DNA from: Naegleria gruberi
Lineage: Eukaryota
Length of the DNA: 64,000 nucleotides
Assembly: GCA_000004985.1 (NCBI GenBank)
Contig: GG738916.1
Reading direction: 5' to 3' (one strand)
This document shows positions 22,508 to 62,288 of this stretch, in pieces. Position 1 is the stretch's first letter, and each line of letters begins with the position of its first letter. The notes under the pieces were generated by a model. The model saw only the letters and a list, made by a program, of their open reading frames with translations, ran no database searches and was not told where the DNA came from. A program made the position numbers and the translations under genes.

Positions 22508-23791
22508 ATGAAGAGAGCTCGAGATGAAATGAGAAGCGCAAACAACATTGTCCTGTTATTATTCTTGTTGATGATGATGACAATCTTTTCCACAACAACA
22601 ACAGCAGCAACTACAAGTTCCACCACTAAATTATCATATATTTCAACAATTGCAGGAAGTGGATTAATATCAGCAGCAGGTATGGAAGGAGATGGTGGTT
22701 TGGCTATCAATGCCCAATTAAATTCTCCCTCCTATTCAATAAGTATTTCCCCTCTCAGCAATAATAATTACACTGAAACACTTATTGTCGATACACAAAA
22801 TGGAAGAATTAGAAAAATATTTATGAATGGTACAATTTTCACATTACCAATTAATATGCAAACAGGTAACAAGTTTAAACCAACCATGGCTGTTTTATTT
22901 AGAAATGAATTATACATGACAGATGTGTTAAATCATAGAATTCTTTCTGTTTGCCTTTCACGTTATTTGGTGACCATTGTTTCTGGAAAGCAAAACTGTA
23001 ATGAACATTCTGATTGTGATGGTTTTAGTGGTGATGGTGGTTTAGCTAGTAGAGCAAAATTAAATTCACCTAATGGTCTCTCTATTTCTCAGAATGGTGA
23101 AATTTACATTGCTGACACATTGAACCATAGAATCAGAAAGATTAATAGTTATGGAGTGATTTCAACTATTGCTGGAACTGGTAGAGCATCCTTTGGTGGT
23201 GATGGTGGATTTGCTGTTCTTTCACAATTAAACTCTCCAAATGGTGTTCATATTTCACAGAATGGTGAAATTTACATTGCTGATACATTGAACCATAGAA
23301 TTAGAAAGATTAATAGTTATGGTGTGATTTCAACAGTGGCAGGAACTGGTAGAGCATCATTTGGTGGTGATGGTGGTTTGGCTATAAACTCTCAATTGAA
23401 TTCACCATATGGCGTCCATGTTTCACAGAATGGTGAAATTTACATTGCTGACACATTGAATCATCGAATTAGAAAGATATTTGTGAATGGAACTATTACA
23501 ACCATTGCTGGAAGTAGTAGCGATGGATCATTTGGTGGTGATGGTGGTTTGTCAATTGCGAGTCGACTTAATTCTCCTAAAGGTGTTTTTGTTTCTCCAA
23601 ATAATAATGAAATATTAATTGCAGACACATCAAATAACAGGATTAGAAAGATCATTGAATGTGGTACAACTCTTCAATTTACACAAGATTTCAATGGAGC
23701 TATGAGTTGTGTGAATACATGCAATGGAACACGATCCAATTCAAAATCAGTTTGTAATGGCAATGGTATCTGTAATGGTTTTAATGAATGT
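22508..23791 (+). CDS. NHL-repeat/EGF-repeat giant surface protein, copy 1 (5' part only). The signal peptide, about six NHL repeats and the first two EGF repeats are present; the rest is lost in the assembly gap at 23792..23841.
   Basis: MKRARDEMRSANNIVLLLFLLMMMTIF is the signal peptide. NHL units are repeated (LNSPNGLSISQNGEIYIADTLNHRIRKI...). The first about 1.2 kb is more than 95% identical to copies 2 and 3. Confidence 0.7.
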
Positions 23792-24179: not shown

Positions 24180-27100
24180 ATGAGAAGCGCAAACAACATT
24201 GTCCTGTTATTATTCTTGTTGTTGATGATGACACTCTTTTCCACAACAACAACAATAGGATACTTTTCGTATGTGAAAGCAACAACTGCAAGTTCCACCA
24301 CTAAATTATCATATATTTCAACAATTGCAGGAAGTGGATTAATGGCAGCATCAGGTATGGAAGGAGATGGTGGTTTGGCTATCAATGCCCAATTAAATGC
24401 TCCCTCCTATTCAATAAGTATTTCCCCTCTCAACAATAATAATTACACTGAAACACTTATTATAGATACACAAAATGGAAGAATTAGAAAAATATTTATG
24501 AATGGTACAATTTTCACATTACCAATTAATATGCAAACAGGTAACAAGTTTAAACCAACCGTGGCTGTTTTATTTAGAAATGAATTATACATGACAGATG
24601 TGTTAAATCATAGAATTCTTTCTGTTTCTCTGTCAAGTTATTTGGTGACCATTGTTTCTGGAAAGCAAAACTGTAATGGACATTCTGATTGTGATGGTTT
24701 TAGTGGTGATGGTGGTTTAGCTAGTAGAGCAAAATTAAATTCACCAAATGGTCTCTCTATTTCTCAGAATGGTGAAATTTACATTGCTGACACATTGAAC
24801 CATAGAATCAGAAAGATTAATAGTTATGGAGTGATTTCAACTATTGCTGGAACTGGTAGAGCATCCTTTGGTGGTGATGGTGGATTTGCTGTTCTTTCAC
24901 AATTAAACTCTCCAAATGGTGTTCATATTTCACAGAATGGTGAAATTTACATTGCTGATACATTGAACCATAGAATTAGAAAGATTAATAGTTATGGTGT
25001 GATTTCAACAGTGGCAGGAACTGGTAGAGCATCCTTTGGTGGTGATGGTGGTTTGGCTATAAACTCTCAATTGAATTCACCATATGGCGTCCATGTTTCA
25101 CAGAATGGTGAAATTTACATTGCTGACACATTGAATCATCGAATTAGAAAGATATTTGTGAATGGAACTATTACAACCATTGCTGGAAGTAGTAGCGATG
25201 GATCATTTGGTGGTGATGGTGGTTTGTCAATTGCGAGTCGACTTAATTCTCCTAAAGGTGTTTTTGTTTCTCCAAATAATAATGAAATATTAATTGCAGA
25301 CACATCAAATAACAGGATTAGAAAGATCATTGAATGTGGTACAACTCTTCAATTACACAAGATNNNNNNNNNNNNNNNNNNNNNNNNNNNNNNNNNNNNN
25401 NNNNNNNNNNNNNNNNNNNNNNNNNNNNNNNNNNNNNNNNNNNNNNNNNNNNNNNNNNNNNNNNNNNNNNNNNNNNNNNNNNNNNNNNNNNNNNNNNNNN
25501 NNNNNNNNNNNNNNNNNNNNNNNNNNNNNNNNNNNNNNNNNNNNNNNNNNNNNNNNNNNNNNNNNNNNNNNNNNNNNNNNNNNNNNNNNNNNNNNNNNNN
25601 NNNNNNNNNNNNNNNNNNNNNNNNNNNNNNNNNNNNNNNNNNNNNNNNNNNNNNNNNNNNNNNNNNNNNNNNNNNNNNNNNNNNNNNNNNNNNNNNNNNN
25701 NNNNNNNNNNNNNNNNNNNNNNNNNNNNNNNNNNNNNNNNNNNNNNNNNNNNNNNNNNNNNNNNNNNNNNNNNNNNNNNNNNNNNNNNNNNNNNNNNNNN
25801 NNNNNNNNNNNNNNNNNNNNNNNNNNNNNNNNNNNNNNNNNNNNNNNNNNNNNNNNNNNNNNNNNNNNNNNNNNNNNNNNNNNNNNNNNNNNNNNNNNNN
25901 NNNNNNNNNNNNNNNNNNNNNNNNNNNNNNNNNNNNNNNNNNNNNNNNNNNNNNNNNNNNNNNNNNNNNNNNNNNNNNNNNNNNNNNNNNNNNNNNNNNN
26001 NNNNNNNNNNNNNNNNNNNNNNNNNNNNNNNNNNNNNNNNNNNNNNNNNNNNNNNNNNNNNNNNNNNNNNNNNNNNNNNNNNNNNNNNNNNNNNNNNNNN
26101 NNNNNNNNNNNNNNNNNNNNNNNNNNNNNNNNNNNNNNNNNNNNNNNNNNNNNNNNNNNNNNNNNNNNNNNNNNNNNNNNNNNNNNNNNNNNNNNNNNNN
26201 NNNNNNNNNNNNNNNNNNNNNNNNNNNNNNNNNNNNNNNNNNNNNNNNNNNNNNNNNNNNNNNNNNNNNNNNNNNNNNNNNNNNNNNNNNNNNNNNNNNN
26301 NNNNNNNNNNNNNNNNNNNNNNNNNNNNNNNNNNNNNNNNNNNNNNNNNNNNNNNNNNNNNNNNNNNNNNNNNNNNNNNGCCAATTCTGTGAAATTCCAA
26401 TTTGTAATGGAACAATGGCAACTGATGCTTTGGTTTGTAATGGCAATGGTACATGTATTCAACCAGATATATGTAATTGTACTTCAGAATGGGGTGGACA
26501 GTATTGTGAAATTCCATATTGTAATGGAATATTGGCAAATAATATATCTGCTTGTGAAGGACATGGTAACTGTATTAGCCCAAATATTTGTGAGTGTAAT
26601 TCGACATATGGTGGAGAATTTTGTGAATCTCCAAAATGTAACTTTACACTGGCAACTGATCCTTATGTATGTACTGGAAATGGAGAATGTATTCAACCAG
26701 ATGAATGTATTTGTAATACCAATTGGACTGGTCAATTCTGTCAAACTCCACTTTGTAATGGTACGAGTGCAACTGATGCATTGGTTTGTAATGGAAACGG
26801 TCAATGTGTGAGTCCAAATATTTGTGAATGTAATTCAAGTTGGTCAGGAGAACTTTGTGAAATTCCAATTTGTAATGGAACTTTGGCCATTGATGAATTT
26901 GTGTGTAGTGGTAATGGTGCATGTATTGGTCCAGATGTTTGTGAGTGCAATTCTACATGGGGTGGACAATATTGTGAATCTCCAAAATGTAACTCTACAC
27001 TGGCAACTGATCCTTATGTATGCAATGGTAATGGAGAATGTTTTCAACCCAATGAATGTATTTGTAATTCAAATTGGACAGGTCCATTTTGTGAAATTCC

Positions 27101-29044
27101 AATATGTAATGGTATTAAGGCTACCAATGATAGTAATTCAACTTTAACCACCAATGAAACAGTGGTGTGTAGTGGAAATGGTCTTTGCATTCGTCCAGAC
27201 GAATGTTTATGTAATTCAAATTGGGCAGGTCAATATTGTGAAATTCCAATATGTGGAGATGTTTTGGCAACCAATGAAACAGCATGTAATGGCAATGGTA
27301 AATGTGTTCAACCAAATGAATGCATTTGCGACTCAAATTGGACAGGTCAATTATGTGAAACTCCAATATGTAGTGGTATAATTTCCACTAATATATCTGT
27401 TTGTAGTAGAAAGGGTGATTGTGTTGGTGCCAATCTTTGTATCTGTTTAACTGGTTGGGGAGGTGAAGATTGTTCCACACCAATTTGTAATAATATTCTA
27501 TCTACCAATGCTACTACCAATACTGATAGTAATGGAACTATAGTTAGCAATAATACATTGGTGTGTAGTGGACATGGTGAATGTACTAGTCCAAATCAAT
27601 GCAATTGTAATTTAAATTGGGGTGGTAAACAATGTGAAATACCTAAATGTCAAGGTATTTTGGCTAATAATGAGGCAGTTTGCAACTCTAGAGGATATTG
27701 TGTCAATGAAAATCAATGTCAATGTAATGAAATGTGGGGAGGTCAATTTTGTGAAATTCCATTTTGTAATGGAACTTTAGCCACTGATTCAAATGTGTGT
27801 AATTCATTGGGAGTATGTGTTGGTCCAAATCAATGTAAATGTCTCTCAGGTTGGGGTGGTAAACTATGTACAATACCATCATGTAATGGAATTCTTGCAT
27901 TTGATGAGAATGAAGTGTGTATCGCAAAGAGTAATGCATGTAGTGGAAATGGAAAGTGTATTGATCTTAATCGATGCAAATGTGACAAAGGTTGGACTGG
28001 ACCATTATGTTCAACACCAACATGTAATGGAACATCGGCCACTGAACTAACTGTTTGTAATGGTTTTGGAGTGTGTGTTGCACCAGATACGTGTAATTGT
28101 TATAGANNNNNNNNNNNNNNNNNNNNNNNNNNNNNNNNNNNNNNNNNNNNNNNNNNGCAACACCAACATGTAATGGAATTGTTGCCACAGATCCAAACGT
28201 GTGCAATTCAAGTGGTGTTTGTGTCGATTNTGATAAGTGTGAATGTTTTTCTGGTTATGGAGATGCATTCTGTGGCACTCCAACTTGTAATGGAATTCTA
28301 GCAACTCAAATTAATGTAGAAGTAGCTGTTTGTAGTGGTCGTGGAGTGTGTTTGGGACCAAATAAGTGTGTCTGTGAACCGAATTGGGGTGGTTTCATGT
28401 GTAATATTCCAAAATGCTACGATATTGAAGGAGACAAGAAAGGTGCTTGCTTTGGAAATGGTGATTGTATAGCAGTTGACTCATGTAAATGTTATCAAGG
28501 TTATATTGGTTATGATTGTCGTACTGTTGCTCCTGATAATAATTGTGGTGGATCAGGTTCAGGAACTACTTTTTGGGATGTTGTCTTGGAGGGTATGAAG
28601 ATAATTCGTACAGTGTTATCCGGTGCAGTGTCACTAGCTAGTTCAATTAGTGATGTTATTTCATCCTTAGGAAAAGGTTTGATTGACCTTCTTGGAGGAA
28701 TTGTTCCAAGCATTGCAAATATTTTCAGCTCCATTCCAAAATTAATAGAGAAAATTATTTCCTTTATTATCAGTACGGCAGAGAAGTTTATTAACTTTAT
28801 TCTCGGTTTATGGACAAAGATATTAGATTTTATATCATGGTTATTGACCTATCTTCCAAAAATATTTTCTGGAGTTACAACTCAACAAGTGGCAACAGTT
28901 TTGATTGTCATTGGTGTTGTCATACTTTTAATCATTATTTGTGTATTGTTGTATTTACTTAGTCCATATGTTACATTGGTACTTGAATTTTTCAAAATTA
29001 TTACCAGTTTTTGCTCAGCTCGTAAGAAGGCACTTAAGGAGTAG
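24180..29044 (+). CDS. NHL-repeat/EGF-repeat giant surface protein, copy 2, lying in tandem with copy 1. It is interrupted by assembly gaps (25364..26379 and 28107..28156, plus a single n at 28230), so the reading frame appears broken. The C-terminal Gly-rich hydrophobic domain and TM anchor lie at 28540..29044.
   Basis: The N-terminus starts at the second Met of the copy 1 sequence (MRSANNIV...). The EGF region 26380..28275 is near-identical to copy 3 in inverse orientation; the same alternate-frame ORFs appear on both. The tail after about 28275 diverges. Confidence 0.7.
25364..26379. other. Assembly gap (1016 N) inside NHL-EGF copy 2.
   Basis: A run of n characters. Confidence 0.99.
28107..28156. 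other. Assembly gap (50 N) inside NHL-EGF copy 2. There is an additional single n at 28230.
   Basis: A run of n characters. Confidence 0.99.
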
Positions 29045-29171: not shown

Positions 29172-31185
29172 TTATTTAGGTACCAACTTTTTCTTTTCAA
29201 TAGAATCGCCAGAACAACAACATCTTGCAACACAACAGCAACAAATTGTCAATGAAATGGTAATCAATACAAATAAAACTGATACACCAACAACAACAGC
29301 AATAACTCTGTTTGTGTTAAGTGAAGAAGTATCAAGGAAATCTATAAAGATGAAAGAATCCAAAAAGTCAACAATAACTTGCTTCACTTTGTAGTAAACA
29401 TATAAAAGTTCACCCCAGAAACTACTTGCTGGTGCTTTGTTATCAACTAATGTACCATTGGATGCAATGTAAAAATCATACTCAACTACGAGTGAGGAAG
29501 TATAGGTACCACAAGTGAGAGTCATCATTGCATAGCCTGTGAAATTTTTGGTTGGATAAATTGTAATTGAGTTTGTATCAGAATTTGACAAGGATACATA
29601 AGTTGGTGTAAATGAAGGTGTAGATGATTCAAAGAAACAACCTTGTTGAGTTTTAGATTTAACTACACAAGATGTTGATAAACAACTGACAAGAGTTGGT
29701 TGTGAATTGTCAGTTGTCAATATTGTCATGTTACCAACAATTTTCAATGAAACTGATGCTAATGAAACACCTTTAAATGAAATTGAAGAAAGAACTGTTG
29801 GATCAGTTGGTTCAACAGTAACTGGAATAAAAGATGCTCCATTACGTGTTTCACCTTTGAAAGAAACACGTTTAAGCATATTATCAGGCCAAGTATATGC
29901 TAATATTTGTGTATCTGCATCTCCTTTGATTAATTGTGGGTTAGAATCACCACCATCAGTATATCTCTCTATATAGATACAATTTGGTTCCTTGAAAAAA
30001 AGTTTGGTAGAAATGACTGGATTGGAGTTGATTGAATTTTCTTTGAAATTATAAATTTTAAAATTTCCAGTTATAGAACCACAAGTAGTTGATAAAGTAA
30101 GACTATTTGAAGTTTCAGTGGATTTCCAGCAAGAATTCCTTCAATATTGCTACCAATAATAATAGGTTCAGTTGAATCTATACCTAAATAACCAAATCCT
30201 AGAATATTTTCAGGCCTACTAATGGCATGTGAAATACATCCTTTGAAGCAATGATGGATGCTTGTAAATTCAAATCTGAATATTCGGCAAATTTGGCCAA
30301 GAAAGAAGCTCTACTTGCAGCATGGGCCTCTAAAATACGTCTAGTAATAGAGGCATTATCAAAAGAAGCTACAGTATAAGCAGGGGAACTTTCACAACCA
30401 GTTGAAAAGTGTACCATTGATTGAATTTCTGAGAGTTCAGGAAGTGTAACATCAAAATTACAACTACCTCTTGGTGATTGACAATTATATTTGATTTCAC
30501 TGTTTTTAATATTGCTGACCTTAATCCAACCAATCTTTGAAATATCAGAAACGTTAAAACCATTTACTACTGAAGAAGGTAGTAAGTAAAAATCTGATTT
30601 AGATGTTAAATCAATAACTGAATAATCTGCAACAAATGGAAGGGTAGTTGAATTTAAATCCATAATGAAATTTAAACCAGTGTAACCAATTGGAATTGAT
30701 GCTTGATTATTTACAACTGAAACTTGAGAAGAACTTCCTTGATATTTAACAGTAATAAAACCGCTATAGGTAGGAGGATCCAATTTACAAACTTTGAAAC
30801 GTCTAAAAGCTTCAAATGCCAAATTATAACAAGAAGTACTATAACCTGGGTCAGTGTTTGGAATACTAAAAGAAACGGTGTTCAAATAGTTATTACCTGT
30901 AAAATCAGGTGGAGAACAAACATTGCTTTTTGAGCAAGCAGAAGTATATCTTGGAATTGGATCATCTGTATAATAACAACTAGAAGATGATAATTTAACA
31001 ATAAAATCCATTCCAAGTGTAATATCAACAATGGAATTGTCATCTGTAATCTTGAAACAAACTTTGTCATTCAATGTTCGGGTATAACCAGTATCAACAG
31101 AATAAATACAACTGGTTGAATTATTGGCACCAAGGCATGACTTTTGTTGACCTTTAGAAAGTGCTATTGGAAGACACTGTTCATA
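29172..31185 (-). CDS. Large type I membrane protein, paralogue of 32620..34749. Its 5' end lies in the gap at 31186..31680 and there is an apparent 1-nt frame break near 30150. The C-terminal TM is followed by a CCCCVARCCCSGDS poly-Cys tail.
   Basis: The pieces 30199..31074 and 29172..29879 align colinearly with the N- and C-terminal halves of the 709-aa paralogue (CYNLAFEAFRRFKVCKL..., ...FIPVTVEP...TCGTYTSSL...). The intervening 29880..30198 also aligns, but in a shifted frame. Confidence 0.5.
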
Positions 31186-31680
31186 NNNNNNNNNNNNNNN
31201 NNNNNNNNNNNNNNNNNNNNNNNNNNNNNNNNNNNNNNNNNNNNNNNNNNNNNNNNNNNNNNNNNNNNNNNNNNNNNNNNNNNNNNNNNNNNNNNNNNNN
31301 NNNNNNNNNNNNNNNNNNNNNNNNNNNNNNNNNNNNNNNNNNNNNNNNNNNNNNNNNNNNNNNNNNNNNNNNNNNNNNNNNNNNNNNNNNNNNNNNNNNN
31401 NNNNNNNNNNNNNNNNNNNNNNNNNNNNNNNNNNNNNNNNNNNNNNNNNNNNNNNNNNNNNNNNNNNNNNNNNNNNNNNNNNNNNNNNNNNNNNNNNNNN
31501 NNNNNNNNNNNNNNNNNNNNNNNNNNNNNNNNNNNNNNNNNNNNNNNNNNNNNNNNNNNNNNNNNNNNNNNNNNNNNNNNNNNNNNNNNNNNNNNNNNNN
31601 NNNNNNNNNNNNNNNNNNNNNNNNNNNNNNNNNNNNNNNNNNNNNNNNNNNNNNNNNNNNNNNNNNNNNNNNNNNNNNNN
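31186..31680. other. Assembly gap (495 N) covering the 5' end of the type I membrane protein paralogue.
   Basis: A run of n characters. Confidence 0.99.
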
Positions 31681-34802: not shown

Positions 34803-37800
34803 TTGCGTGTGAAAAAAATGACAATTTTGAAAAGTGTGTTGCCTTCTAAAGCAGCACCTGTTATTGTTGCGTTTATTGGTGTGGTGATGGTATTGGTTCT
34901 CCATATTTCATTTGTGCAGTCCCAAATACGTTCTCTATCGACTTTTTACTCTACAGGTACATGGATTTCGTCTGTTGTTGTTGATTCTAGCAATACAATT
35001 TATTTCGCATCAAACAATAGATTGTTTAGTCTTCCAAGTGGTTCAGAAACACCTACAGTAATTGCAGGCAGTGGTTTAAACGTATTTTCTGATGGACCAG
35101 CAATGAGTAGTGGAATTCAATCAGTTAAAGCAATGTATTATTGTGCCAATAATGACATTTTATTTATTGACAATGACAGATTGAGAAAACTTTCACAAGG
35201 TATTGTTTCAACATTGGCAGGTACAAAAGAAGCTGGATTTAATGGAGATGGTATTCCAGCTGTTAGTGCTCAGTTAAATTCACCATTAGGTGTTTCAATG
35301 TCAAAAGGCGGTGAAATTTATATTGCAGATAAACTAAATCATAGAATTAGAAAGATTGATATCTTTGGTAAAATTACAACAATTGCAGGAACTGGACAAG
35401 CAGGTTATAATGGTTAGTATTTATTTAAATTCTTTTTTACTAATAATCTTAAAGGTGAATCACAACCAGCAGAATCTGCCTATTTAAATGGTCCAGCAGG
35501 TATTTTTCTTGATGAAAATGATAACATTTTCATAGCAGAAGATTTGGGACATAGAGTAAGATTCATTGATAGATCCACCTCTCTTATTGTAACGTTGGCC
35601 GGAACTGGAGAACCAGGATATGGAGGTGATGGTTCTTTAGCAACTCAAGCTCAACTTAATGGACCAGAGGCTGTTATCCTTTCTGGAACTGGAGCTGTCA
35701 TTATTTCTGATACATATAATCATGCTATAAGAACAATTTTAGATAATAATCTCATTACAATTGCTGGAACTCTTGGTACCAATGGAGATAGTGATGGTAG
35801 TTTGGAAACAAAGCTATATTATCCTATGGGTCTTACTATTACACCATATCAAGCACTATTAATTGCCGACTCATGGAATGACAAAATCAAAATGTTAATT
35901 GATGAGGCCCCAATGATGGCGCTAGCAACAGATTGTAATAATTTTGCCATGGCATGTTGTGTGAATGTTATTGATCGTAATCCATTTGCTACTCAATGCC
36001 ATTGTATATCTGGATGGGATGGAACATATTGTGATATACCAGTGTGTAATGGTGTGAGGGCTGATAGAGGTGCATGTGGTGGTTCATCTAAGGGAGATTG
36101 TACATCTCCAAATAAGTGCACTTGTAAGAATGGATATTATGGTAGTGATTGCTCTCAATTTTCTTGTCCTGGACGTTATGAAGACAGTATAGATTGTTAT
36201 GGTCATGGAACATGTATTGCTCCAAGTACTTGCTCTTGTGATGCTGGGTATTCAGGATATTTTTGTGATCAATTCCCTTGTCCAGATTGTCATGGACATG
36301 GAGTTTGTACTGGTCCAAACACTTGCTATTGTCTTACTGCTGGATGGAAAGGTTCAGATTGTTCCATTCCAATTTGTTTTGGAAATAGTCAGGATTCAGC
36401 ATGTAGTGGTCCAACCAATGGTAAATGTACAAGCCCTGATGGTTGTTCTTGTAACTCTGGATGGACAGGAAATAATTGCCAAACACCAACATGTACAAAT
36501 AATTGTAATGGTCGTGGTGAATGTGTAGGTCCAAACACTTGTTCATGTATCTCTGGATGGGGAGGTGTTGATTGTTCAATGCCTGCCTGTAATTGCCCAG
36601 CAGTTGGTTATCAATATTGTGCCGGCCCAAATACTTGTGCTTGTATTTCTGGATATTCAGGTCCAAATTGTGATATTCCTGTTTGTAGTGGTGGTTGTGG
36701 GAATGGTTATTGTTCAAGCCCAGGTACATGCACTTGTAACCCAGGATGGACTGGTGCAGATTGTTCAACTTTTACATGCACAAATGGTTGTAACTCTCAT
36801 CAACAGTGTACAGGTCCCAATACTTGTACTTGTAATGCTGGATATTCAGGTCCAAACTGTGAAAGTTTTTCATGTTCAAATAATTGCAATGGTCATGGAA
36901 TGTGTGTTGCTCCAAACACTTGTGCTTGTTATTCTCGGTGGTCAGGTTCAGATTGTTCCATTCCTCAGTGTGATACTGGATGTAATGGACATGGTACTTG
37001 TGTTGGTCCAAATGTTTGTGTTTGTAATTCTGGATGGGCAAGTCATTCAACAGGTTGTAACACATTTACTTGTCCAAATGATTGTAGTGGTCATGGAACT
37101 TGTGATGGTCCAAACAGTTGTACTTGTAATTCTGGATGGACAGGCTTAGATTGTTCCATTGTTTTTTGTTTTGGAAATACTCAGGATTTAGCATGTAGTG
37201 GTCCAACAAATGGAAAATGTACAAGTCCAGATGTTTGTTCTTGTAATTCTGGATGGACAGGAAATAATTGCCAAACACCAATATGTACAAATGGATGTGG
37301 TTCAAATGGAGTTTGTACAGCTCCAAACACATGTACTTGTAATGATGGTTGGATGGGTAGTGATTGTTCACTTCCTATTTGCCCAAATCAATGCAGTGCT
37401 CATGGAAAATGTGTGTCTCCTGCTATTTGTTCTTGTACTGCTGGTTGGACTGGAAATGATTGTGGTATGGCAATTTGTACTAGTGGATGTTTACAAGGAA
37501 GTTGTACATCTCCAAATACGTGTACTTGTAAAGAAGGATGGAAAGGTACAGACTGTTCAATTCCTTCATGTTACGGAAACATTCAGAGTTTGGCATGTAG
37601 TGGTCCTACACATGGTAAATGTGTAAGTCCTGATATTTGTAATTGTACAAGTGAATGGACAGGTCTCAATGTGACAAACCAGTATGCATTAATGGATGTG
37701 GTAATTCAAATCAAGGATTGTGTGTAGCTCCAAATACATGTGAATGTAAAGAAGGATGGAATGGTACAGACTGTTCAATTCCTATTTGTTTTGGAAATAG

Positions 37801-39244
37801 TCAAGATTCAGCATGTAATGGTCCTACACATGGTAAATGTGTAATCTTGCTGTTTGCGATTGTACAAGTGAATGGACAGGATCTCAATGTGAAATCCCTG
37901 TATGTAGAGTGGATGTGGTAGTTCAAATCAAGGATTATGCGTAGCTCCAAACACATGCGAATGTAAAGAAGGATGGACTGGAGCAGATTGCTCCATTGCT
38001 ATTTGCTTTGGAAACATTCAGATTTGGCATGTAGTGGTCCTACACATGGTAAATGTTTGAGTCCAGATGCGTGTAATTGCACAAGTGAATGGACAGGTCC
38101 TCAATGTGACAAACCAGTATGCATTAATGGATGTGGTAATTCAAATCAAGGATTGTGTGTAGCTCCAAATACATGTGAATGTAAAGAAGGATGGACTGGT
38201 ACAGACTGTTTAACCCCTATTTGTTTTGGAAATAGTCAAGATTCATCATGTAATGGTCCTACACATGGTAAATGTGTAGATCTTGCTGTTTGCGATTGTA
38301 CAAGTGAATGGACAGGATCTCAATGTGAAATCCCTGTATGTAAGAGTGGATGTGGTAGTTCAAATCAAGGATTATGCGTAGCTCCAAACACATGCGAATG
38401 TAAAGAAGGATGGACTGGAGCAGATTGCTCCATTGCTATTTGCTTTGGAAAAACTCAAGATTCAGCATGTAATGGTACAAATGGTAAATGTGTTAGTCCA
38501 GATGCCTGTAATTGCACAAGTGAATGGACAGGATCTGAATGTGAAAAACCAGTATGCATTAATGGATGTGGTAATTCAAATCAAGGATTGTGTGTAGGTC
38601 CAAACATTTGTAGATGTAAAGAAGGATGGACGGGTAAAAATTGTTTAACTCCAATCTGTTTTGGAAAGGTAAATAACGCAGCCTGTAATAGTATACTACA
38701 TGGACAATGTGTTTCTCCAAATGTTTGCCAATGCAATTCTGGTTGGATGGGACGTAATTGTACAATTCCTGTTTGTTTTGATGAATTTGGTGCTGTTACT
38801 GCATGTGGTTCTCCACAAGTGGTATGTGAATTGGGTTGGACAGGTATTGATTGTTCTGTTCCTGTTTGTTTTGATATTAATAATCCAGGTTGGGCAGGAG
38901 CAGATTGTACCACTCCTATTTGTTATGGAAAAATCAATCCAAGTGCTTGTAGTGGTTCCTCTCATGGAAAATGTATTGCTCCTAATTTTTGTAAATGTGA
39001 TCCAAAATGGATGGGAAAGGATTGTTCACAAACTGCATGCTTTGGAATTTCACAATTCGATAATAATGTATGTAATGGAAGAGGAAAGTGTATTGATTAT
39101 AATACGTGCCATTGTAATGATGGTTCTAGTGGCAACGCTTGTGAAAAACAAGATTTCTCATGGCAATATGTTATTGCCACTGCAATGATTTTATTGCCAA
39201 CAATTGTTGTCTACTACTTTTCAAAATCCGAGTATTTTAAATAA
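34803..39244 (+). CDS. Second NHL-repeat/EGF-repeat giant type I surface protein, a distant paralogue. It has a signal peptide, four or five NHL repeats, about 60 EGF repeats, a C-terminal TM (YVIATAMILLPTIVVYYF) and a short tail. Exon 1 is 34803..35412, a 42-nt intron lies at 35413..35454 (donor GTTAGTATTT), exon 2 starts at 35455. The frame is disrupted by single-nt deletions inside a near-identical internal tandem repeat (about 37650-38050).
   Basis: NHL motifs (LNSPLGVSMSKGGEIYIADKLNHRIRKI) are present. EGF units have the form CxCxxGWxGxDCSxPxC. The frame is restored in 37973..39244, which ends TAA after a TM segment. Confidence 0.6.
37600..38470 (+). repeat. Intragenic tandem array: two and a fraction copies of an about 435-bp unit (about 145 aa, four to five EGF repeats each) at about 95% identity. 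The first copy carries about four 1-nt deletions relative to the second.
   Basis: The unit anchor ggtcctacacatggtaaatgt recurs at about 37605, 37820, 38040 and 38260. Tgtaagagtggatgtggtagttc in the second copy reads tgtagagtggatgtggtagttc in the first. Confidence 0.7.
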
Positions 39245-44603: not shown

Positions 44604-47600
44604 CTACATGTTGTACTCCTTAAGAGCTTTTTCACTACTTGCTAATGCACTCGAAACACCTTTGACAAATTGAAGTGCAATTGTAATATATGGACTAAGG
44701 AAAGATAACAATACTATAATAATGATCAAAAGTAGTGCAACACCAATGATTACTAAAACTGTTACCACTTGTTGAAGCGTAATTCCAGAAAATATTTTTG
44801 GAAAATAAATCACTGCCCATTCTATAAATTCAACAAATGTTGTCCACAAATTGAGAATAAAGTTAATAAACTTCTCTGCATTGCTAATCAAAAAGTTCAG
44901 AATTTTCTCCATTAATTTTGGAATGGAGCTGAAAATATCTGCAATGTTTGGAATAACTCCTCCAAAAAGGTCAATAAAACCAGTTCCTAAGGATTCAATA
45001 ACATTACCAATTGAACTACCTATAGATGCTGCACCAGATGCCATATCACCAATTAAATCCCAACCTTCCACAAGAACATCCCAAAAAGAGGCACCTCTAC
45101 GTGAGTCACCACAATTCTTGTCAGGAACAACACTACTACAATCATAATCCATATAACCCTGATAACATTTACATGTATCAACTGCTATACAATCACCATG
45201 TCCAGAACATACTTCTTTCTTGTCTCCTGAAATATCGAAACATTTTGGAAAGCCACACATGAAACCACCCCAATTCGGTTGACAGATACACTTATTTGGT
45301 CCCAAACACAATCCACGACCACTACACACAGCTCCTTCTACATTAATGTGAGTGGATAAAATGCTATTACAACTTAAAGTGCCACAGAATGCATCTCCAT
45401 AACCAGAAAAACATTCACACTTATCAAAATCGACACAAACACCACTTGAATTGCACACGTTTGGATCTGTGGCAACAATTCCATTACATGTTGGTGTTGC
45501 ACATAATTTTCCACCCCATGAATTGCAACTACATTCATCATTCTCAATACAAATACCCCTCGAGTTACATACTGTTGGATCTGTGGCCAAAGTTCCATTA
45601 CATGTTGGAACGGTACAGAATTCACCTCCCCAATCTCTATAACAATTACACTTATCTGGTGCAACACACACTCCAAAACCATTACAAACAGTTAGTTCAG
45701 TGGCCGATGTTCCATTACATGTTGGTGTTGAACATAATGGTCCAGTCCAACCTTTCTCACATTTGCATCGATTAAGATCAATACACTTTCCATTTCCACT
45801 ACATGCATTACTCTTTGCGATACACACTTCATTCTCATCAAATGCAAGAATTCCATTACATGATGGTATTGTACATAGTTTACCACCCCAACCTGAGAGA
45901 CATTTACATTGATTTGGACCAACACATACTCCCAATGAATTACACACATTTGAATCAGTTGCTAAAGTTCCATTACAAAATGGAATTTCACAAAATTGAC
46001 CTCCCCACATTTCATTACATTGACATTGATTTTCATTGACACATTTTCCTCTAGAGTTGCAAACTGCCTCATTGTTAGCCAATATACCTTGACATTTAGG
46101 TATTTCACATTGTTTACCACCCCAATTTAAATTACAATTGCATTGATTTGGACTAGTACATTCACCATGTCCACTACACACCAATGTATTATTGCTAACT
46201 ATAGTTCCATTACTATCAGTATTGGTAGTAGCATTGGTAGATAGAATATTATTACAAATTGGTGTGGAACAATCTTCACCTCCCCAACCAGTTAAACAGA
46301 TACAAAGATTGGCACCAATACAATCACCCTTTCTACTACAAACAGATATATTAGTGGAAATTATACCACTACATATTGGAGTTTCACATAATTGATCTGT
46401 CCAATTTGAGTCGCAAATGCATTCATTTGGTTGAACACATTTACCATTGCCATTACATGCTGTTTCATTGGTTGCCAAAACATCTCCACATATTGGAATT
46501 TCACAATATTGACCTGCCCAATTTGAATTACATAAACATTCGTCTGGACGAATGCAAAGACCATTTCCACTACACACCACTGTTTCATTGGTGGTTAAAG
46601 TTGAATTACTATCATTGGTAGCCTTAATACCATTACATATTGGAATTTCACAAAATGGACCTGTCCAATTTGAATTACAAATACATTCATTGGGTTGAAA
46701 ACATTCTCCATTACCATTGCATACATAAGGATCAGTTGCCAGTGTAGAGTTGCATTTTGGAGATTCACAATATTGTCCACCCCATGTAGAATTGCACTCA
46801 CAAACATCTGGACCAACACATGCACCATTACCACTACACACAAATTCATAAATGGCCAAAGTTCCATTACAAATTGGAATTTCACAAAGTTCTCCTGACC
46901 AACTTGAATTACATTCACAAATATTTGGACTCACACATTGACCGTTTCCACTACAAACCAAAACATCAGTTGCACTCGTACCATTGCAAAGTGGAGTTTG
47001 ACAGAATTGACCAGTCCAATTACTATTACATAAACATTGGTCTGGATTAATACATATACCATTAGTGTTACAAACTGATTCATTTGTGGCTAAAGTTCCA
47101 TTACAGATTGGAATTTCACACAAATAACCTCCCCATGTTGAATTACATTCACAGGTGTCTGGACTGACACAAATACCATTACCACTACAAACTGATAAAT
47201 CTGTACCAGCTGTTCCATTACAAAGTGGAGTTTGACAGAATTGACCAGTCCAATTGGTATTACAAATACATTCATCTGGTTGAATACATTCACCATTTCC
47301 ATTACATACATAAGGATCAGTTGCCAGTGTAGAGTTACATTTTGGAGATTCACAAAATTCTCCACCATATGTCGAATTACACTCACAAATATTTGGGCTA
47401 ATACAGTTACCATGTCCTTCACAAACAGATATATTATTTGCCAATATTCCATTACAAAATGGAATTTCACAATACTGTCCACCCCATTCTGAAGTACAAT
47501 TACATATATCTGGTTGAATACATGTACCATTGCCATTACAAACCAAAGTATCAGTTGCCATTGTTCCATTACAAATTGGAATTTCACAAAATTGGCCTGT

Positions 47601-50600
47601 CCAATTGGAATTGCAAAAACATTCATCTGGATTAATACAAATACCGTTGCTGTTGCACACTGTGTCATTGGTAGCTAACGTTCCATTACAAACTGGGACT
47701 TGACAAAATTGTCCACCCCATTCTGATGTACAAACACATTCATCTGGTTGAATACATATTCCATTGCCATTACATACAGTTTCGTTGGTGGCTTCAGTAC
47801 CATTACATATTGGAATTTCACAAAATTGACCTGTCCAATTGTAATTGCAAAGACATTCGTCAGGTTGAATACATGCTCCATTGTTGTTACAAACAAAAGG
47901 ATCAGTTGCGAGTGTAGAGTTGCATTTTGGAATTTCACATAAATCACCTCCCCATGTTGAATTGCAGTTACAAATATTTGGATTAATACATTCACCATTA
48001 CCACTACAAACTGATAAATCTGTACCAGCTGTACCATTACAAAGTGGTGTTTCACACAATTTACCAGTCCAATTTGTATTACAAATGCATTCATCTGGTT
48101 GAACACATTCGCCATTACCATTACAAACAGAATAGTTGTTAGCTAAAGTTCCATTACAAATTGGAATTTCACAAAATTCTCCACTATATGTCGAATTACA
48201 CTGACAAAGATTTGGACCAACACATGCACCGTTACCGCTACATACAGATTCGTTAGTGGCTTCTGTTCCATTACAAATTGGAATTTCACAAAATTGCCCA
48301 GTCCAATTGGAATTACATAAACATTCATCTGGGCGAATGCAAAGACCATTTCCACTACACGCCACTGTTTCATTGGTGGCTAATGTCGCATTGCTATCAT
48401 TGGTAGCTTTAATACCTCCACAGATTGGAATTTCACAATAAGGACCTGTCCAATTTGAATTACAAAAACATTCATCTGGCTGAATACATTCTCCATTACC
48501 ATTACAAACAAAAGGATCAGTTGCATTTGTTCCATTACATACTGGAATTTCACAAAATTGACCAGTCCAATTCGAGTTACATTCACAAATATTTGGACTA
48601 ATACATTTACCATGTCCTGCACAAACAGATGTATCATTAGCAAGAGTATCATTACATATTGGAATTTCACAAAATTCTCCACTCCAAGTTGAATTACATT
48701 CACAAACATCTGGACTAATACAAATACCATTACCACTACATACTGTTGAGTTTGCATCCTCTAGGGTTACATTACAGAGAGGAAATTGACAAAATGGACC
48801 ATAATACCCTGATTGACAATCGCAAGTGTCCAGTGAAGTACATATTCCATGAGAAGTACAAACTGTAGAATTTGTACTTTCAATTGAATTACAAGTTGTC
48901 ATATTACAATAAGTTCCAAAGTATCCACTTGTACAAACACAATTATCACTTGAAATGCACAATCCATGAGAATTGCAAACAGTAGTTTCATTTCCTGAAA
49001 TGTTAAAGCAAGTTGGAATTTCACATTGATATCCTGAATAGCCATCATTACATACACATGTATCGTTTGCAACACATGTTCCGTTTTGATTATTACAAAC
49101 CATTGAATCATTTCCCAATATTGAAAAACAAATTGGAATTTCACAATATTGACCTGTAAATCCTGATTCACAATCACAAGTTTCTGGGCTAGTGCAATTA
49201 CCAACACCATTACAAACACTTGAACTATTTGAAAGTGTATTGTTACAAATAGAAAGCTCACAACACACTCCAGCATATCCCTGACAAATACAAGGATCAT
49301 TAGTATCAATCAGAGCAAATGATGTTAAATGGGATGTTTCACAAATAACAGTACTAGAATTCACCATTTTAGTTCTTACACCATCAGATTTCCATGTATT
49401 TTCAATCCTATCCAAATACATACATGTTAAATTGGATGATTTGGTTATGTTTTGTGAGTGTAATGGAATGATCAAAGTGATTGGCTTGTTCAATTGTTTT
49501 ACAATAACTTCTTTACCACTATCACTCAGTAAAGAAACAGAAACTATAGCACTTTTAACTTTAGGTGTTATCTTATCAATATAAATTGATGAAAATAGAA
49601 TTAATGAGCTATCACTGTTCAATCCACTTGTTGAAATCAAATCACTACTCAATGTGGAAGGAAGTGAAATTTGAATACCCATATTAGTATTCGAATAACT
49701 ATAAGAAACATAAATATTCTTCGAATTTAAATCACCCAATTGATTTGCAACTTGATAATTGTAGGATGTGACATTTGTTGAAACAGCTATTGAACAATAA
49801 GATCCAATCCAACCGTAATTGCAAACACAAGTTTCTGGACTAGTACAATTTCCAACACCATTACAAACCTTCTTACTTGTAGCAAGTGTACCATTACAAA
49901 TTGGTGTTTGACAATATTGACCTCCCCAAGTTGAATTACATTTACATTCATTAAAACCATTACAGATACCATTGCCATTACAAACTGATTTTGAATTGGA
50001 TCGTGTTCCATTGCATGTATTCACACAACTCATAGCTCCATTGAAATCTTGTGTAAATTGAAGAGTTGTGCCACATTCAATGATCTTTCTAATCCTGTTA
50101 TTGGATGTGTCTGCAATTAATATTTCATTATTATTTGGAGAAACAAAAACACCTTTAGGAGAATTAAGTCGACTCGCAATTGACAAACCACCATCACCAC
50201 CAAATGATCCATCGCTACTACTTCCAGCAATGGTTGTAATAGTTCCATTCACAAATATCTTTCTAATTCGATGATTCAATGTGTCAGCAATGTAAATTTC
50301 ACCACTCTGTGAAACATGGACGCCATATGGTGAATTCAATTGAGAGTTTATAGCCAAGCCACCATCACCACCAAATGATGCTCGACCAGTTCCTGCTACT
50401 GTTGTAATCAGTCCGTTAACAAATATCTTTCTAATTCTATGGTTCAATGTATCAGCAATATAAATTTCACCATTCTGAGAAATATGAACACCATTTGGAG
50501 AGTTCAATGGTGAAAGAACAGCAAATCCACCGTCACCACCAAATGATGCTCTACCAGTTCCAGCAATAGTTGAAATTACACCATAACTATTAATCTTTCT

Positions 50601-51227
50601 GATTCTATGGTTCAATGTGTCAGCAATGTAAATTTCACCATTCTGAGAAATAGAGAGACCATTTGGTGAATTTAATTTTGCTCTACTAGCTAAACCACCA
50701 TCACCACTAAAACCATCACAATCAGAATGTTCATTACAGTTTTGCTTTCCAGAAACAATGGTCACCAAATAACTTGACAGAGAAACGGAAAGAATTCTAT
50801 GATTTAACACATCTGTCATGTATAATTCATTTCTAAATAAAACAGCCATGGTTGGTTTAAACTTGTTACCTGTTTGCATATTAATTGGTAATGTGAAAAT
50901 TGTACCATTCATAAATATTTTTCTAATTCTTCCATTTTGTGTATCGACAATAAGTGTTTCAGTGTAATTATTATTGTTGAGAGGTGAAATACTTATTGAA
51001 TAGGAGGGAGAATTTAATTGGGCATTGATAGCCAAACCACCATCTCCTTCCATACCTGCTGCTGCCATTAATCCACTTCCTGCAATTGTTGAAATATATG
51101 ATAATTTAGTGGTGGAACTTGTAGTTGCTGCTGTTGTTGTTGTGGAAAAGATTGTCATCATCATCAACAAGAATAATAACAGGACAATGTTGTTTGCGCT
51201 TCTCATTTCATCCAGAGCTCTCTTCAT
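44604..51227 (-). CDS. NHL-repeat/EGF-repeat giant surface protein, copy 3. It is intact (2207 aa, no gaps) and shows the full architecture. The domains in order are: signal peptide; six to seven NHL repeats (aa about 45-385); two EGF repeats; an about 165-aa domain ending in a GPS/GAIN-like motif (aa about 480-645); about 45 tenascin-type EGF repeats rich in N-glycosylation sequons; an about 120-aa Gly-rich amphipathic domain; a TM anchor; and an about 30-aa tail.
   Basis: It is a continuous ORF on the minus strand. The signal peptide is MKRALDEMRSANNIVLLLFLLMMMTIF. The GPS-like motif is TCMYLDRIENTWKSDGV...STVICETSHLTSFALI. The C-terminal TM is VVTVLVIIGVALLLIIIIVLL. Confidence 0.8.
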   Translation of the reverse strand: MKRALDEMRSANNIVLLLFLLMMMTIFSTTTTAATTSSTTKLSYISTIAGSGLMAAAGMEGDGGLAINAQLNSPSYSISISPLNNNNYTETLIVDTQNGRIRKIFMNGTIFTLPINMQTGNKFKPTMAVLFRNELYMTDVLNHRILSVSLSSYLVTIVSGKQNCNEHSDCDGFSGDGGLASRAKLNSPNGLSISQNGEIYIADTLNHRIRKINSYGVISTIAGTGRASFGGDGGFAVLSPLNSPNGVHISQNGEIYIADTLNHRIRKIFVNGLITTVAGTGRASFGGDGGLAINSQLNSPYGVHVSQSGEIYIADTLNHRIRKIFVNGTITTIAGSSSDGSFGGDGGLSIASRLNSPKGVFVSPNNNEILIADTSNNRIRKIIECGTTLQFTQDFNGAMSCVNTCNGTRSNSKSVCNGNGICNGFNECKCNSTWGGQYCQTPICNGTLATSKKVCNGVGNCTSPETCVCNYGWIGSYCSIAVSTNVTSYNYQVANQLGDLNSKNIYVSYSYSNTNMGIQISLPSTLSSDLISTSGLNSDSSLILFSSIYIDKITPKVKSAIVSVSLLSDSGKEVIVKQLNKPITLIIPLHSQNITKSSNLTCMYLDRIENTWKSDGVRTKMVNSSTVICETSHLTSFALIDTNDPCICQGYAGVCCELSICNNTLSNSSSVCNGVGNCTSPETCDCESGFTGQYCEIPICFSILGNDSMVCNNQNGTCVANDTCVCNDGYSGYQCEIPTCFNISGNETTVCNSHGLCISSDNCVCTSGYFGTYCNMTTCNSIESTNSTVCTSHGICTSLDTCDCQSGYYGPFCQFPLCNVTLEDANSTVCSGNGICISPDVCECNSTWSGEFCEIPICNDTLANDTSVCAGHGKCISPNICECNSNWTGQFCEIPVCNGTNATDPFVCNGNGECIQPDECFCNSNWTGPYCEIPICGGIKATNDSNATLATNETVACSGNGLCIRPDECLCNSNWTGQFCEIPICNGTEATNESVCSGNGACVGPNLCQCNSTYSGEFCEIPICNGTLANNYSVCNGNGECVQPDECICNTNWTGKLCETPLCNGTAGTDLSVCSGNGECINPNICNCNSTWGGDLCEIPKCNSTLATDPFVCNNNGACIQPDECLCNYNWTGQFCEIPICNGTEATNETVCNGNGICIQPDECVCTSEWGGQFCQVPVCNGTLATNDTVCNSNGICINPDECFCNSNWTGQFCEIPICNGTMATDTLVCNGNGTCIQPDICNCTSEWGGQYCEIPFCNGILANNISVCEGHGNCISPNICECNSTYGGEFCESPKCNSTLATDPYVCNGNGECIQPDECICNTNWTGQFCQTPLCNGTAGTDLSVCSGNGICVSPDTCECNSTWGGYLCEIPICNGTLATNESVCNTNGICINPDQCLCNSNWTGQFCQTPLCNGTSATDVLVCSGNGQCVSPNICECNSSWSGELCEIPICNGTLAIYEFVCSGNGACVGPDVCECNSTWGGQYCESPKCNSTLATDPYVCNGNGECFQPNECICNSNWTGPFCEIPICNGIKATNDSNSTLTTNETVVCSGNGLCIRPDECLCNSNWAGQYCEIPICGDVLATNETACNGNGKCVQPNECICDSNWTDQLCETPICSGIISTNISVCSRKGDCIGANLCICLTGWGGEDCSTPICNNILSTNATTNTDSNGTIVSNNTLVCSGHGECTSPNQCNCNLNWGGKQCEIPKCQGILANNEAVCNSRGKCVNENQCQCNEMWGGQFCEIPFCNGTLATDSNVCNSLGVCVGPNQCKCLSGWGGKLCTIPSCNGILAFDENEVCIAKSNACSGNGKCIDLNRCKCEKGWTGPLCSTPTCNGTSATELTVCNGFGVCVAPDKCNCYRDWGGEFCTVPTCNGTLATDPTVCNSRGICIENDECSCNSWGGKLCATPTCNGIVATDPNVCNSSGVCVDFDKCECFSGYGDAFCGTLSCNSILSTHINVEGAVCSGRGLCLGPNKCICQPNWGGFMCGFPKCFDISGDKKEVCSGHGDCIAVDTCKCYQGYMDYDCSSVVPDKNCGDSRRGASFWDVLVEGWDLIGDMASGAASIGSSIGNVIESLGTGFIDLFGGVIPNIADIFSSIPKLMEKILNFLISNAEKFINFILNLWTTFVEFIEWAVIYFPKIFSGITLQQVVTVLVIIGVALLLIIIIVLLSFLSPYITIALQFVKGVSSALASSEKALKEYNM

Positions 51228-60596: not shown

Positions 60597-62288
60597 TCAT
60601 TCCACCAATGAAGCAATAAAATCATTTTGATCCACTAATCGTTGTTGTAAATCTAATAAATCTTGTAAACATAAAGTTTCAACATTTTCAAATAATTCAA
60701 TTGGAATATTTGTTTCATCTTTTTCAATAATATTTAATAAATCTCTTCTCATAACATTTATATTTGGTAAATTTAATTCCAATGGAGCAGATAGACTAAT
60801 ATAGGAATCAATCATTTTCAAAGCCTTTTCTTTTCTATCCTTTTTAGGTAATTTTTTAAATTTTTGAATATCAGTCCAACATAATACTGGTTCAGGTGTA
60901 TAACTTCTACGTGCAAAATCTAGAAATATTGAATATGTTTTTGGATCTTTAAGTAATATTTCAGTTGTACTAAATGAAGTAATATTTCTATTTTTACTAT
61001 TTATAGAAAATAATCCACCATTTCTAATAAAATCCAATCTAATATCATAACATACAGGTAATACAACACATACAAATATTTCAAATACACTTCCTGCTAA
61101 TAAAACTAATAAGTAAGGTACAAAATAATCAACTAATTCAGCAATTATAGGAATACTTCCCAAAACAATAAATAAAATTACTAAAAATGGTTGAACAATA
61201 ACATGTACAAGTGTTTCCTTTTTAATATTCCATGTATCTCTATCTGATCTAATACATAATACTAATGTAATCCATTCAACTATATAATAAACTAATGCTT
61301 CTGCTATAATTATACCAAACATGGCACTAGATCCAATACATCCATATGAGAATTGAAAAAATCCAGGAATTACAAAGAAATGAGGTTCATTTTCATTTTT
61401 AGTATTGGAATGAATAATTTCATCAATTCCACCTAAAATTATCCAAAATAGAATTTGACTAAGAAAACATAAAAAATAGGCTGAAATTACAAATGTATGA
61501 CTTGTCATGAATTGATAAAATTTAAATATTCTCCATTCTTTTTTTGTTATTAATCTCTTTTCTATATTATTTTCATTATTTTCATTATTTAATTCTATAT
61601 TAGTATTTTCATTATTATTTTCATTGATATTTAATTCTATATTATTTTCATCATTTAATTCTATAGAATTAGAAATATGAATACTATTATTTAATTCAAT
61701 TTCTTTTATATTATTTTTTAATTCCATATTAGTAAGTGATATTCCATTTTTAGAATTAATAATTAAATAATTATCATTATATATTCTAGTTTTAAATAAA
61801 TTTAATTTATAACTAAAATATAATTTTAAACATCTACAAGTGACAGGTAAACTAGTTAATGGACCAGCAACAAAGAAACTCAAAGTATATAAACTACATG
61901 GAAATACCTTTCTTCCAATAATTATTCGAAGTGAAAATATGACAACAAAAAAACAAGATGAAAGCATTGTTAAAAACATGTGTGAAATACTTCTAGCTTG
62001 AATATTACCTGATTTACGTTTCCAAATAATTGAAATTGATGTGAAAAATAATAAAAAAAGATAAAATATTAGAAAGGCTAACATTAATGCGAATGATACA
62101 TTAGTATCGGGACACATTTGATTTTCAATACTGGGATTTAATTCTCTACTTAGACCTATTGTAAATAATATTGGATGACAATAAGTTGTTGTCGTGTTAT
62201 TAGTAGTGGAATTAGTAGAATTACTATTCGAAAGTGCAATAATATTACTATTCGAAAGTAGTTGTTGTGCGATAGTTTCCAGCATCAT
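60597..62288 (-). CDS. Seven-transmembrane receptor-like protein with a C-terminal RGS (regulator of G-protein signalling) domain; the 7TM-RGS architecture is as in plant RGS1. It has a long Asn/Glu-rich cytoplasmic loop.
   Basis: There are multiple TM segments in the first 450 aa. The C-terminal RGS box is SFSTTEILLKDPKTYSIFLDFARRSYTPEPVLCWTDIQKFKK...KALKMIDSYISLSAPLELNLPNINVMRRDLL...LFENVETLCLQDLLDLQQRL. Confidence 0.55.
   Translation of the reverse strand: MMLETIAQQLLSNSNIIALSNSNSTNSTTNNTTTTYCHPILFTIGLSRELNPSIENQMCPDTNVSFALMLAFLIFYLFLLFFTSISIIWKRKSGNIQARSISHMFLTMLSSCFFVVIFSLRIIIGRKVFPCSLYTLSFFVAGPLTSLPVTCRCLKLYFSYKLNLFKTRIYNDNYLIINSKNGISLTNMELKNNIKEIELNNSIHISNSIELNDENNIELNINENNNENTNIELNNENNENNIEKRLITKKEWRIFKFYQFMTSHTFVISAYFLCFLSQILFWIILGGIDEIIHSNTKNENEPHFFVIPGFFQFSYGCIGSSAMFGIIIAEALVYYIVEWITLVLCIRSDRDTWNIKKETLVHVIVQPFLVILFIVLGSIPIIAELVDYFVPYLLVLLAGSVFEIFVCVVLPVCYDIRLDFIRNGGLFSINSKNRNITSFSTTEILLKDPKTYSIFLDFARRSYTPEPVLCWTDIQKFKKLPKKDRKEKALKMIDSYISLSAPLELNLPNINVMRRDLLNIIEKDETNIPIELFENVETLCLQDLLDLQQRLVDQNDFIASLVE

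Follow-up and report, generated by a model that had tools for sequence, protein, structure and literature searches.

A GAIN subdomain B with a GPS motif far from the membrane in a single-pass NHL-EGF surface protein of Naegleria gruberi

The 64,000-nucleotide stretch of contig GG738916.1 from the Naegleria gruberi assembly GCA_000004985.1 that was analyzed here (the window) contains a gene, referred to as copy 3, for a type-I surface protein built from an NHL beta-propeller, EGF-like units, and a single transmembrane (TM) helix. Between two EGF units and a long EGF array, positions 49296-49793 of the minus strand almost certainly encode a genuine GAIN subdomain B (GAIN-B) carrying the GPS motif (named for the proteolysis site of G protein-coupled receptors, GPCRs), homologous in sequence and fold to the autoproteolytic domain of adhesion GPCRs and polycystin-1. 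To our knowledge, GAIN autoproteolysis is understood almost wholly from adhesion GPCRs, in which the cut exposes a tethered agonist for the seven-transmembrane (7TM) region. Copy 3 and its Naegleria paralogues retain all the catalytic determinants that can be read from sequence, yet they do so without a 7TM region, without subdomain A, and without the second disulphide. The favored reading of the whole, that a GAIN-B domain cuts itself within an NHL-EGF type-I protein, is judged probable, with appreciable room for doubt about the cut. The family thereby offers a natural test of whether subdomain B alone is a sufficient self-cleaving unit, of what purpose a cut serves when no receptor is attached, and of which form of the domain is the older one. 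What is described is an unusual placement of a known domain and reveals neither a novel domain nor a novel mechanism; that GAIN has a deep ancestry predating animals, and that GPS motifs occur in Naegleria, has been published before.

A preliminary description of the window had proposed a GPS/GAIN-like motif at 49293-49790. The peptide that it quoted (...NLTCMYLDRIENTWKSDGVRTKMVNSSTVICETSHLTSFALID) is found in the reverse-strand translation, and the interval corresponds to residues 480-645 of the copy-3 product. On these isolated residues the Pfam GPS model (PF01825) scores 30.7 bits (E 4.6e-7), well above its curated gathering cut-off of 22.5 bits, and on the 48-residue motif alone it scores 34.4 bits; the profile hidden Markov model (HMM) check that had been suggested for GPS is thus significant. 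The Pfam GAIN model gives no match to residues 480-645 even at E<=10, and GPS is not listed by Pfam when the entire cysteine-rich 2207-residue protein is scanned. GPS is likewise missed in whole-protein scans of the paralogues P0002, P0012, and P0016. Routine annotation therefore likely misses the domain.

An exhaustive phmmer search of 1.84 billion representative sequences returned 139 relatives of the domain at E<1e-3. A word-indexed homologue search found no matches with the domain alone and, with a family profile, only a single N. gruberi protein; the profile was built from an alignment (A1) of the window domain and 15 full-length relatives (16 sequences). When compared with PDB sequences at E<=0.1, this profile matched adhesion-GPCR GAIN domains only, with E-values of 2.1e-10 for ADGRG6, 1.1e-8 for ADGRG1, and 1.8e-8 for ADGRL3. 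The alignments to these three span profile positions 33-165 (~130 residues), so that most of subdomain B is covered, beyond the 45-residue motif. It is conceivable that a beta-rich spacer of unrelated origin came to resemble a GPS by chance, as the missing GPS entry in the whole-protein scan and the E-value of only 0.024 in a single-sequence phmmer search against the PDB might suggest, but the probability of this is negligible: it is ruled out by the PF01825 score, the matches of the family profile to the PDB, and the structural matches to GAIN domains described below. The earlier view that the resemblance was unlikely to be accidental is upheld by that score, the 139 relatives, and the family-profile matches to GAIN domains.

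Structure prediction, also named as a check in the preliminary description, yields a beta-sandwich in which HLT stands at the turn joining the final pair of strands, so that neither of the two computational grounds for refutation named there applies. Single-sequence AlphaFold modeling of residues 465-660 was unusable (pLDDT 36), whereas the AlphaFold2 (AF2) model computed with A1 as the alignment reached a pLDDT of 89.9 and a pTM of 0.84. The latter has ~13 strands and two short helices, in agreement with subdomain B as described in the literature, a twisted beta-sandwich in which 13 strands are accompanied by 2 small helices (PMC3321182). Within the model, SHLT occupies a four-residue turn joining the last two predicted strands (E149-154 and E159-164). 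The nine top-ranked PDB structures in a Foldseek search are without exception GAIN domains (BAI3, CELSR1, BAI2, latrophilin-1/-3, GPR110, and CD97), with query-normalised TM-scores of 0.49-0.65.

Catalytic and disulphide positions were mapped by alignment to the solved GAIN domains of ADGRL3, ADGRG6, and ADGRG1 (Table 1). In latrophilin-1, disulphides join C801 to C832 (C1-C3) and C820 to C834 (C2-C4) (PMC3321182). The proposal that two canonical cysteines had been lost together, as a pair, is correct, as the replaced positions C2 and C4 make up one latrophilin-1 disulphide, and only three of 160 related domains are discordant at them; both cysteines are present in 58 and both are absent in 99. 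C1 and C3 are jointly present in 159 of the 160. Since C2 and C4 are jointly absent from 99 domains in which HLT is kept, the one-disulphide GAIN-B is a large, coherent class and not a product of decay. Among the 161 domains compared at the remaining positions, the triplet is conserved as H in 159, L or M in 151, and T or S in 159, while F637 is kept in 152, an aromatic residue (Y, F, or W) stands at C1+2 in 157, and the glycine at the position of G616 is found in 151. The H, the L, and F637 are invariant across A1, at 20-36% identity. The aromatic residue (F S10.49) positions the catalytic His, and the F803Y variant of latrophilin-1 is fully active (PMC13062082). The Gly preceding C2 is strictly conserved in the cleavage-competent human receptors (PMC13062082).

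From these residues, self-cleavage between L634 and T635 is predicted and is considered probable, although cleavage should not be taken for granted, because subdomain A and the second disulphide are absent. Several points weigh against it. The window domain lacks the C2-C4 bridge, which is one of the two disulphides that hold the scissile turn (PMC3321182), and every human adhesion-GPCR GAIN domain has the C2 bridge (PMC13062082). There is no helical subdomain A: EGF units directly adjoin the sandwich, and the only helices of the model are two short ones. Latrophilin-1 lost its autoproteolysis when subdomain A was deleted (PMC3321182). BAI2 and BAI3 are poorly cleaved despite HLS or near-consensus sites, and flap regions, which are not judgeable from sequence, also influence cleavage (PMC13062082). 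The presumed geometry of the C602-C629 disulphide and the presumed His-Tyr contact are taken from the alignment alone. In addition, neither the 2207-residue product, nor the GAIN-B domain, nor the N-terminal 700 residues have a close counterpart in the protein collections, and the shedding or breakaway role discussed below is pure inference.

Several of these points would also fit a true GAIN-B fold that does not cleave and acts, where the NHL head meets the EGF stalk, as a rigid spacer or a binding module whose HLT is retained on structural grounds. This alternative is possible but clearly the less probable one. It draws on the missing subdomain A and C2-C4 disulphide, on latrophilin-1, in which cleavage required subdomain A and both disulphides hold the scissile turn (PMC3321182), and on the several animal GAIN domains whose HLS or near-consensus sites resist cleavage (PMC13062082), and L634 and F637 have packing roles as well. 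It has to account, on the other hand, for the retention of the triplet even in the 99 domains without the second disulphide, together with the His-positioning aromatic and the Gly, when cleavage-dead animal GAIN domains typically lose one such residue (PMC13062082). Catalysis accounts more readily for conservation of this kind at 20-36% identity.

Under the favored reading, that the domain cleaves itself, T635 would attack the carbonyl of L634 during folding in the endoplasmic reticulum, with H633 acting as the base, in the manner of adhesion GPCRs (PMC3321182; PMC13062082). This would cut the chain between L634 and T635, and the new N-terminal strand, TSFALID, would remain docked in the sandwich as its final strand. 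The mature protein would then be a non-covalent heterodimer of a ~600-residue NHL-head fragment and a membrane-anchored stalk of 35 EGF units. Since the protein has no 7TM region, a tethered-agonist role in cis is impossible, and the most economical role for the cut would be that of a pre-formed separable joint, at which a ligand-binding NHL head might be shed or pulled off under load.

GAIN domains outside animals were reported in 2012 from Dictyostelium and Tetrahymena (PMC3321182), and in a 2025 survey GAIN was concluded to be older than Holozoa, its fusion to 7TM having occurred only in stem holozoans (PMC12716839). Amoebozoan family-2 GPCRs have no GAIN domains (PMC10445921). GAIN-B might serve in copy 3 as a self-cleaved joint that separates under force midway along a long adhesin, independent of any 7TM receptor; if it does, and if the widespread B-only, one-disulphide form were the older, controlled ectodomain shedding or mechanical release would be the ancestral job of GAIN autoproteolysis, and tethered-agonist signaling a later holozoan addition. 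This wider proposal is speculative and rather unlikely, and its extension to an exposed TSFALID strand acting in trans on the GPS-bearing 7TM-RGS receptors of Naegleria is much less likely still.

Most closely related to the domain are proteins of N. gruberi, N. fowleri, and N. lovaniensis with the architecture NHL-(EGF)-GAIN-B-TM, for instance N. gruberi P0146 ("predicted protein"), XP_002678376.1, and XP_002678052.1, N. lovaniensis XP_044547328.1, and N. fowleri XP_044559224.1. They are uncharacterised, and several carry the automatic name "GAIN-B domain-containing protein." Copy 3 has in common with them a signal peptide, an NHL propeller, EGF units of the teneurin type, and a GAIN-B that has one disulphide and the shared pattern C..[YF]..W..DG[VIL]...C.T.HLTSFAVID, and its domain bears the family signature HLTSFA[VL]ID. 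Identity to these relatives is 28-47% in the domain and 28-39% in the NHL region. In the relatives, the TM helix follows the GPS by ~25-40 residues, after a conserved "NFKK" linker, whereas in copy 3 the 35 EGF units and a 118-residue region (together ~1,500 residues) stand between the GPS and the TM helix.

This distance is without precedent among the 159 GPS ends of relatives that were classified. Of these, 104 have a TM helix no more than 80 residues away (1-2 TM helices in 72 cases, 3-5 in 18, and at least 6 in 14), 33 are fragments that stop shortly past the GPS, and in the other 22 the TM helix is distant. Most of these 22 are inner units of tandem GAIN-B repeats belonging to 7TM proteins, along with a few of REJ type or of unknown type. 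As a separate observation, the 7TM relatives P0001, P0006, and P0070 have up to six tandem GAIN-B/GPS repeats (HMT[LP]FAV) per ectodomain, with the GPS far from the membrane. An EGF array after the GPS was found in no relative of the 139-hit set. The non-juxtamembrane position is thus the distinctive feature of copy 3; it had been noted in the preliminary description but not singled out there. That description had called the context undescribed, which is true only in part. NHL-(EGF)-GAIN-B-TM paralogues occur in three Naegleria species, GPS has been published for N. fowleri 7TM-RGS proteins (PMC9283941), and non-holozoan GAIN domains have been known since 2012 (PMC3321182); the placement ahead of an EGF array, ~1,500 residues from the membrane, has no match among the relatives. 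Literature searches yielded no description of a Naegleria NHL-EGF-GAIN-B family and no GAIN domain placed mid-ectodomain ahead of an EGF array, and the Acrasis kona genome paper makes no mention of these domains.

Comparison with known systems places copy 3 outside the adhesion GPCRs, the polycystin-1/REJ family, and the teneurins. With the animal adhesion GPCRs (latrophilin/ADGRL1, BAI3, ADGRG1/3/6, CELSR1, and CD97) it shares the subdomain-B sandwich, the GPS motif, and HL/T at the turn between the last two strands, as well as the His-partner aromatic, the Gly, the first disulphide, and the hydrophobic last strand TxFAxx (PMC3321182; PMC13062082). It differs from them in lacking subdomain A, the second disulphide, and the 7TM region, and in that the domain is not juxtamembrane. 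Membership in the adhesion GPCRs (class B2) was rejected, as there is no 7tm_2 match and a single TM helix stands ~1,500 residues downstream. Like the 7TM-RGS proteins of N. fowleri, whose ectodomains are of the EGF or lectin type (Bosch et al. 2022, PMC9283941), copy 3 combines a GPS with EGF-like repeats at the cell surface, in the same genus; in those proteins a 7TM-RGS module follows the GPS, whereas copy 3 has one TM helix and a tail of ~30 residues. The window itself contains, at 60597-62288 (minus strand), a 563-residue open reading frame (ORF) whose product has 6-7 hydrophobic helices and ends in an RGS domain; it belongs to the 7TM-RGS class (PMC9283941) and has no GPS motif.

The polycystin-1/sea-urchin REJ family likewise has GAIN/GPS in a non-class-B protein, and REJ + GPS proteins are among the database relatives (P0041 and P0045). 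Copy 3 is not a member, having no REJ or PLAT domain (Pfam), no 11-TM region, and only a single TM helix. ZU5 (UNC5, ankyrin), FIIND (NLRP1/CARD8), the Nup98 autoproteolytic domain APD, and mucin SEA score lower than GAIN and have no GPS profile match; the catalytic motifs of these other self-cleaving modules differ (HFS, FS). The best Pfam models for the remaining domains are teneurin-derived (TEN_NHL, EGF_Teneurin, and EGF_TEN), a likeness of domain types and not of architecture. Teneurins are type-II proteins with EGF repeats N-terminal to NHL, a YD shell, and a toxin-like domain. Copy 3 is type-I, has NHL first, and shows no YD or Tox match (Pfam, hydropathy), and its membership in this family was rejected.

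The copy-3 gene is a single, uninterrupted ORF of 2207 codons, and the coordinates of its parts are collected in Table 1. The description of its product as a single-pass NHL-EGF protein without a 7TM region is borne out: apart from the signal-like segment, the TM helix is the sole hydropathy peak of the whole protein, and the Pfam scan finds no 7TM (7tm_2), REJ, or PLAT domain. Cleavage of the signal peptide and a cytoplasmic location of the tail are predicted. The domain does lie, as had been stated, between the second EGF unit and a long array, with 2 units preceding and 35 coming after. The ~45 EGF repeats that had been claimed were too many, as the count after the domain is 35 units of 39 residues; this array has 210 Cys and 35 CxC motifs with a modal spacing of 39. 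Across the whole protein, Pfam finds 36 stretches of EGF_Teneurin, and the best stretch of EGF_DL_JAG is at residues 459-480. Residues 2036-2153 have no family match and no Pfam match in the scan of the whole protein.

Table 1. Coordinates of copy 3 and its paralogous copies in the window, with the canonical GAIN positions in copy 3.
Feature	Position	Strand	Evidence or remark
Copy 3, complete ORF: type-I NHL-EGF-GAIN-B-EGF array-TM surface protein, N. gruberi	44604..51227	-	continuous ORF; Pfam TEN_NHL/NHL, EGF_Teneurin, EGF_2
Signal-peptide-like N-terminal segment, residues 1-32; hydrophobic core 14-32	51132..51227	-	hydropathy peak IVLLLFLLMMMTIFSTTTT, mean 2.06
NHL beta-propeller region, residues ~45-385	50073..51095	-	Pfam TEN_NHL 96 bits, NHL 89 bits
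Linker and two EGF-like units before GAIN-B, residues 386-478	49794..50072	-	13 Cys, 2 CxC motifs
GAIN subdomain B, residues 479-644; ~13 beta-strands and 2 short helices, without subdomain A	49296..49793	-	
GPS motif proper, residues 601-639	49311..49427	-	PF01825 spans residues 122-160 of the 166-residue query
Predicted catalytic triplet H633-L634/T635	49323..49331	-	predicted scissile bond between 49326-49328 (L634) and 49323-49325 (T635)
Last beta-strand TSFALID, residues 635-641; would stay docked after cleavage	49305..49325	-	predicted strand E159-164 of the model
35 teneurin-type EGF units, 39-residue period, residues 646-2035, between GAIN-B and membrane	45123..49292	-	Cys/CxC count
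Cys-poor amphipathic pre-membrane region, 118 residues, 2036-2153	44769..45122	-	sequence; hydropathy under TM threshold
Single strong TM helix, residues 2154-2177	44697..44768	-	hydropathy peak 3.58, VVTVLVIIGVALLLIIIIV
Short, putatively cytoplasmic tail, ~30 residues, and stop codon	44604..44696	-	sequence
C602			C1 of canonical GAIN
Y604			aromatic at C1+2
W612			conserved Trp
G616-V617			Gly-Cys motif, Val in place of C2
C629			C3 of canonical GAIN
T631			Thr in place of C4
H633-L634-T635			HL/T triplet
Paralogue copy 1, NHL part only, ends at N gap	22508..23791	+	97.5% nucleotide identity to copy 3
Paralogue copy 2: NHL, 1016-N gap, EGF array, TM	24180..29044	+	97-99% nucleotide identity to copy 3 besides the last 0.9 kb

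The EGF units directly before and after GAIN-B share a 42-nucleotide core, VCNGVGNCTSPETC, at 49827-49868 and 49176-49217 on the minus strand (residues 454-467 and 671-684), in which 39 of 42 nucleotides are identical and the three differences are synonymous. The shared core hints that the present arrangement arose by recombination between EGF units; it suggests that GAIN-B stands between duplicated units, possibly as the outcome of recombination of an NHL-EGF-GAIN-B gene with an EGF-array gene. The same join might instead be an artefact, in which the assembly fused two such genes, or the ORF might be an unexpressed pseudogene. The N gaps of the scaffold, the 97-99% identity of the paralogue copies, the shared core, the lack of the NHL-GAIN-B half among the collections' N. 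gruberi proteins, and the GPS adjoining a TM helix in all other family members would be in keeping with this, but it is very improbable. There are zero Ns from 31681 to 64000, and a 6.6-kb stop-free ORF in a genome of 33% GC is not expected of a pseudogene. A chimera formed through the EGF core was rejected as unlikely, since 42 nucleotides with three synonymous differences are too short a stretch to mislead a Sanger assembly. Flanking its gap, copy 2 begins with NHL and finishes with the EGF array and TM just as copy 3 does.

In a word-indexed search with the N-terminal 700 residues, bacterial NHL-repeat proteins crowded the results and no match was close. As no close counterpart was found even though the N. 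gruberi proteome was included, the NHL-GAIN-B half of the gene appears to be unannotated or mis-modelled. An annotation gap is thus exposed, in that this half is missing from the collections and the GPS is missed by whole-protein Pfam scans.

Copies 1 and 2 could be tandem paralogues or mis-assembled haplotypes. Copy 2 has about two EGF units fewer than copy 3, and its last 0.9 kb (the pre-TM region and tail) is only 82.5% identical to copy 3. GAIN-B is visible in copy 3 only, as its region falls in N gaps in copies 1 and 2 (25364-26379 in copy 2), and the window, searched in all six frames with the family HMM, yielded no further GAIN-B domain, copies 1 and 2 being gapped there. The N gaps of the window are at 23792-23841, 25364-26379, 28107-28156, and 31186-31680, none of them near copy 3.

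A more divergent NHL-propeller, EGF-array, TM gene without GAIN-B extends over three ORFs at 34803-39244 (plus strand), which may reflect introns or frameshifts. Together with the copies, this gene indicates that the scaffold holds a cluster of NHL-EGF surface-protein genes. Two paralogous, Cys-containing type-I membrane proteins without a Pfam match, EFC37662.1 and EFC37664.1, are encoded at 29172-31074 and 32620-34749 (both minus strand), and the N gap 31186-31680 separates their genes. On the 245,038-bp scaffold of N. gruberi NEG-M, where exact protein matches place the window, the matching proteins are EFC37616.1, EFC37618.1, EFC37658-60.1, EFC37662.1, EFC37664.1, EFC37668.1, and EFC37670.1.

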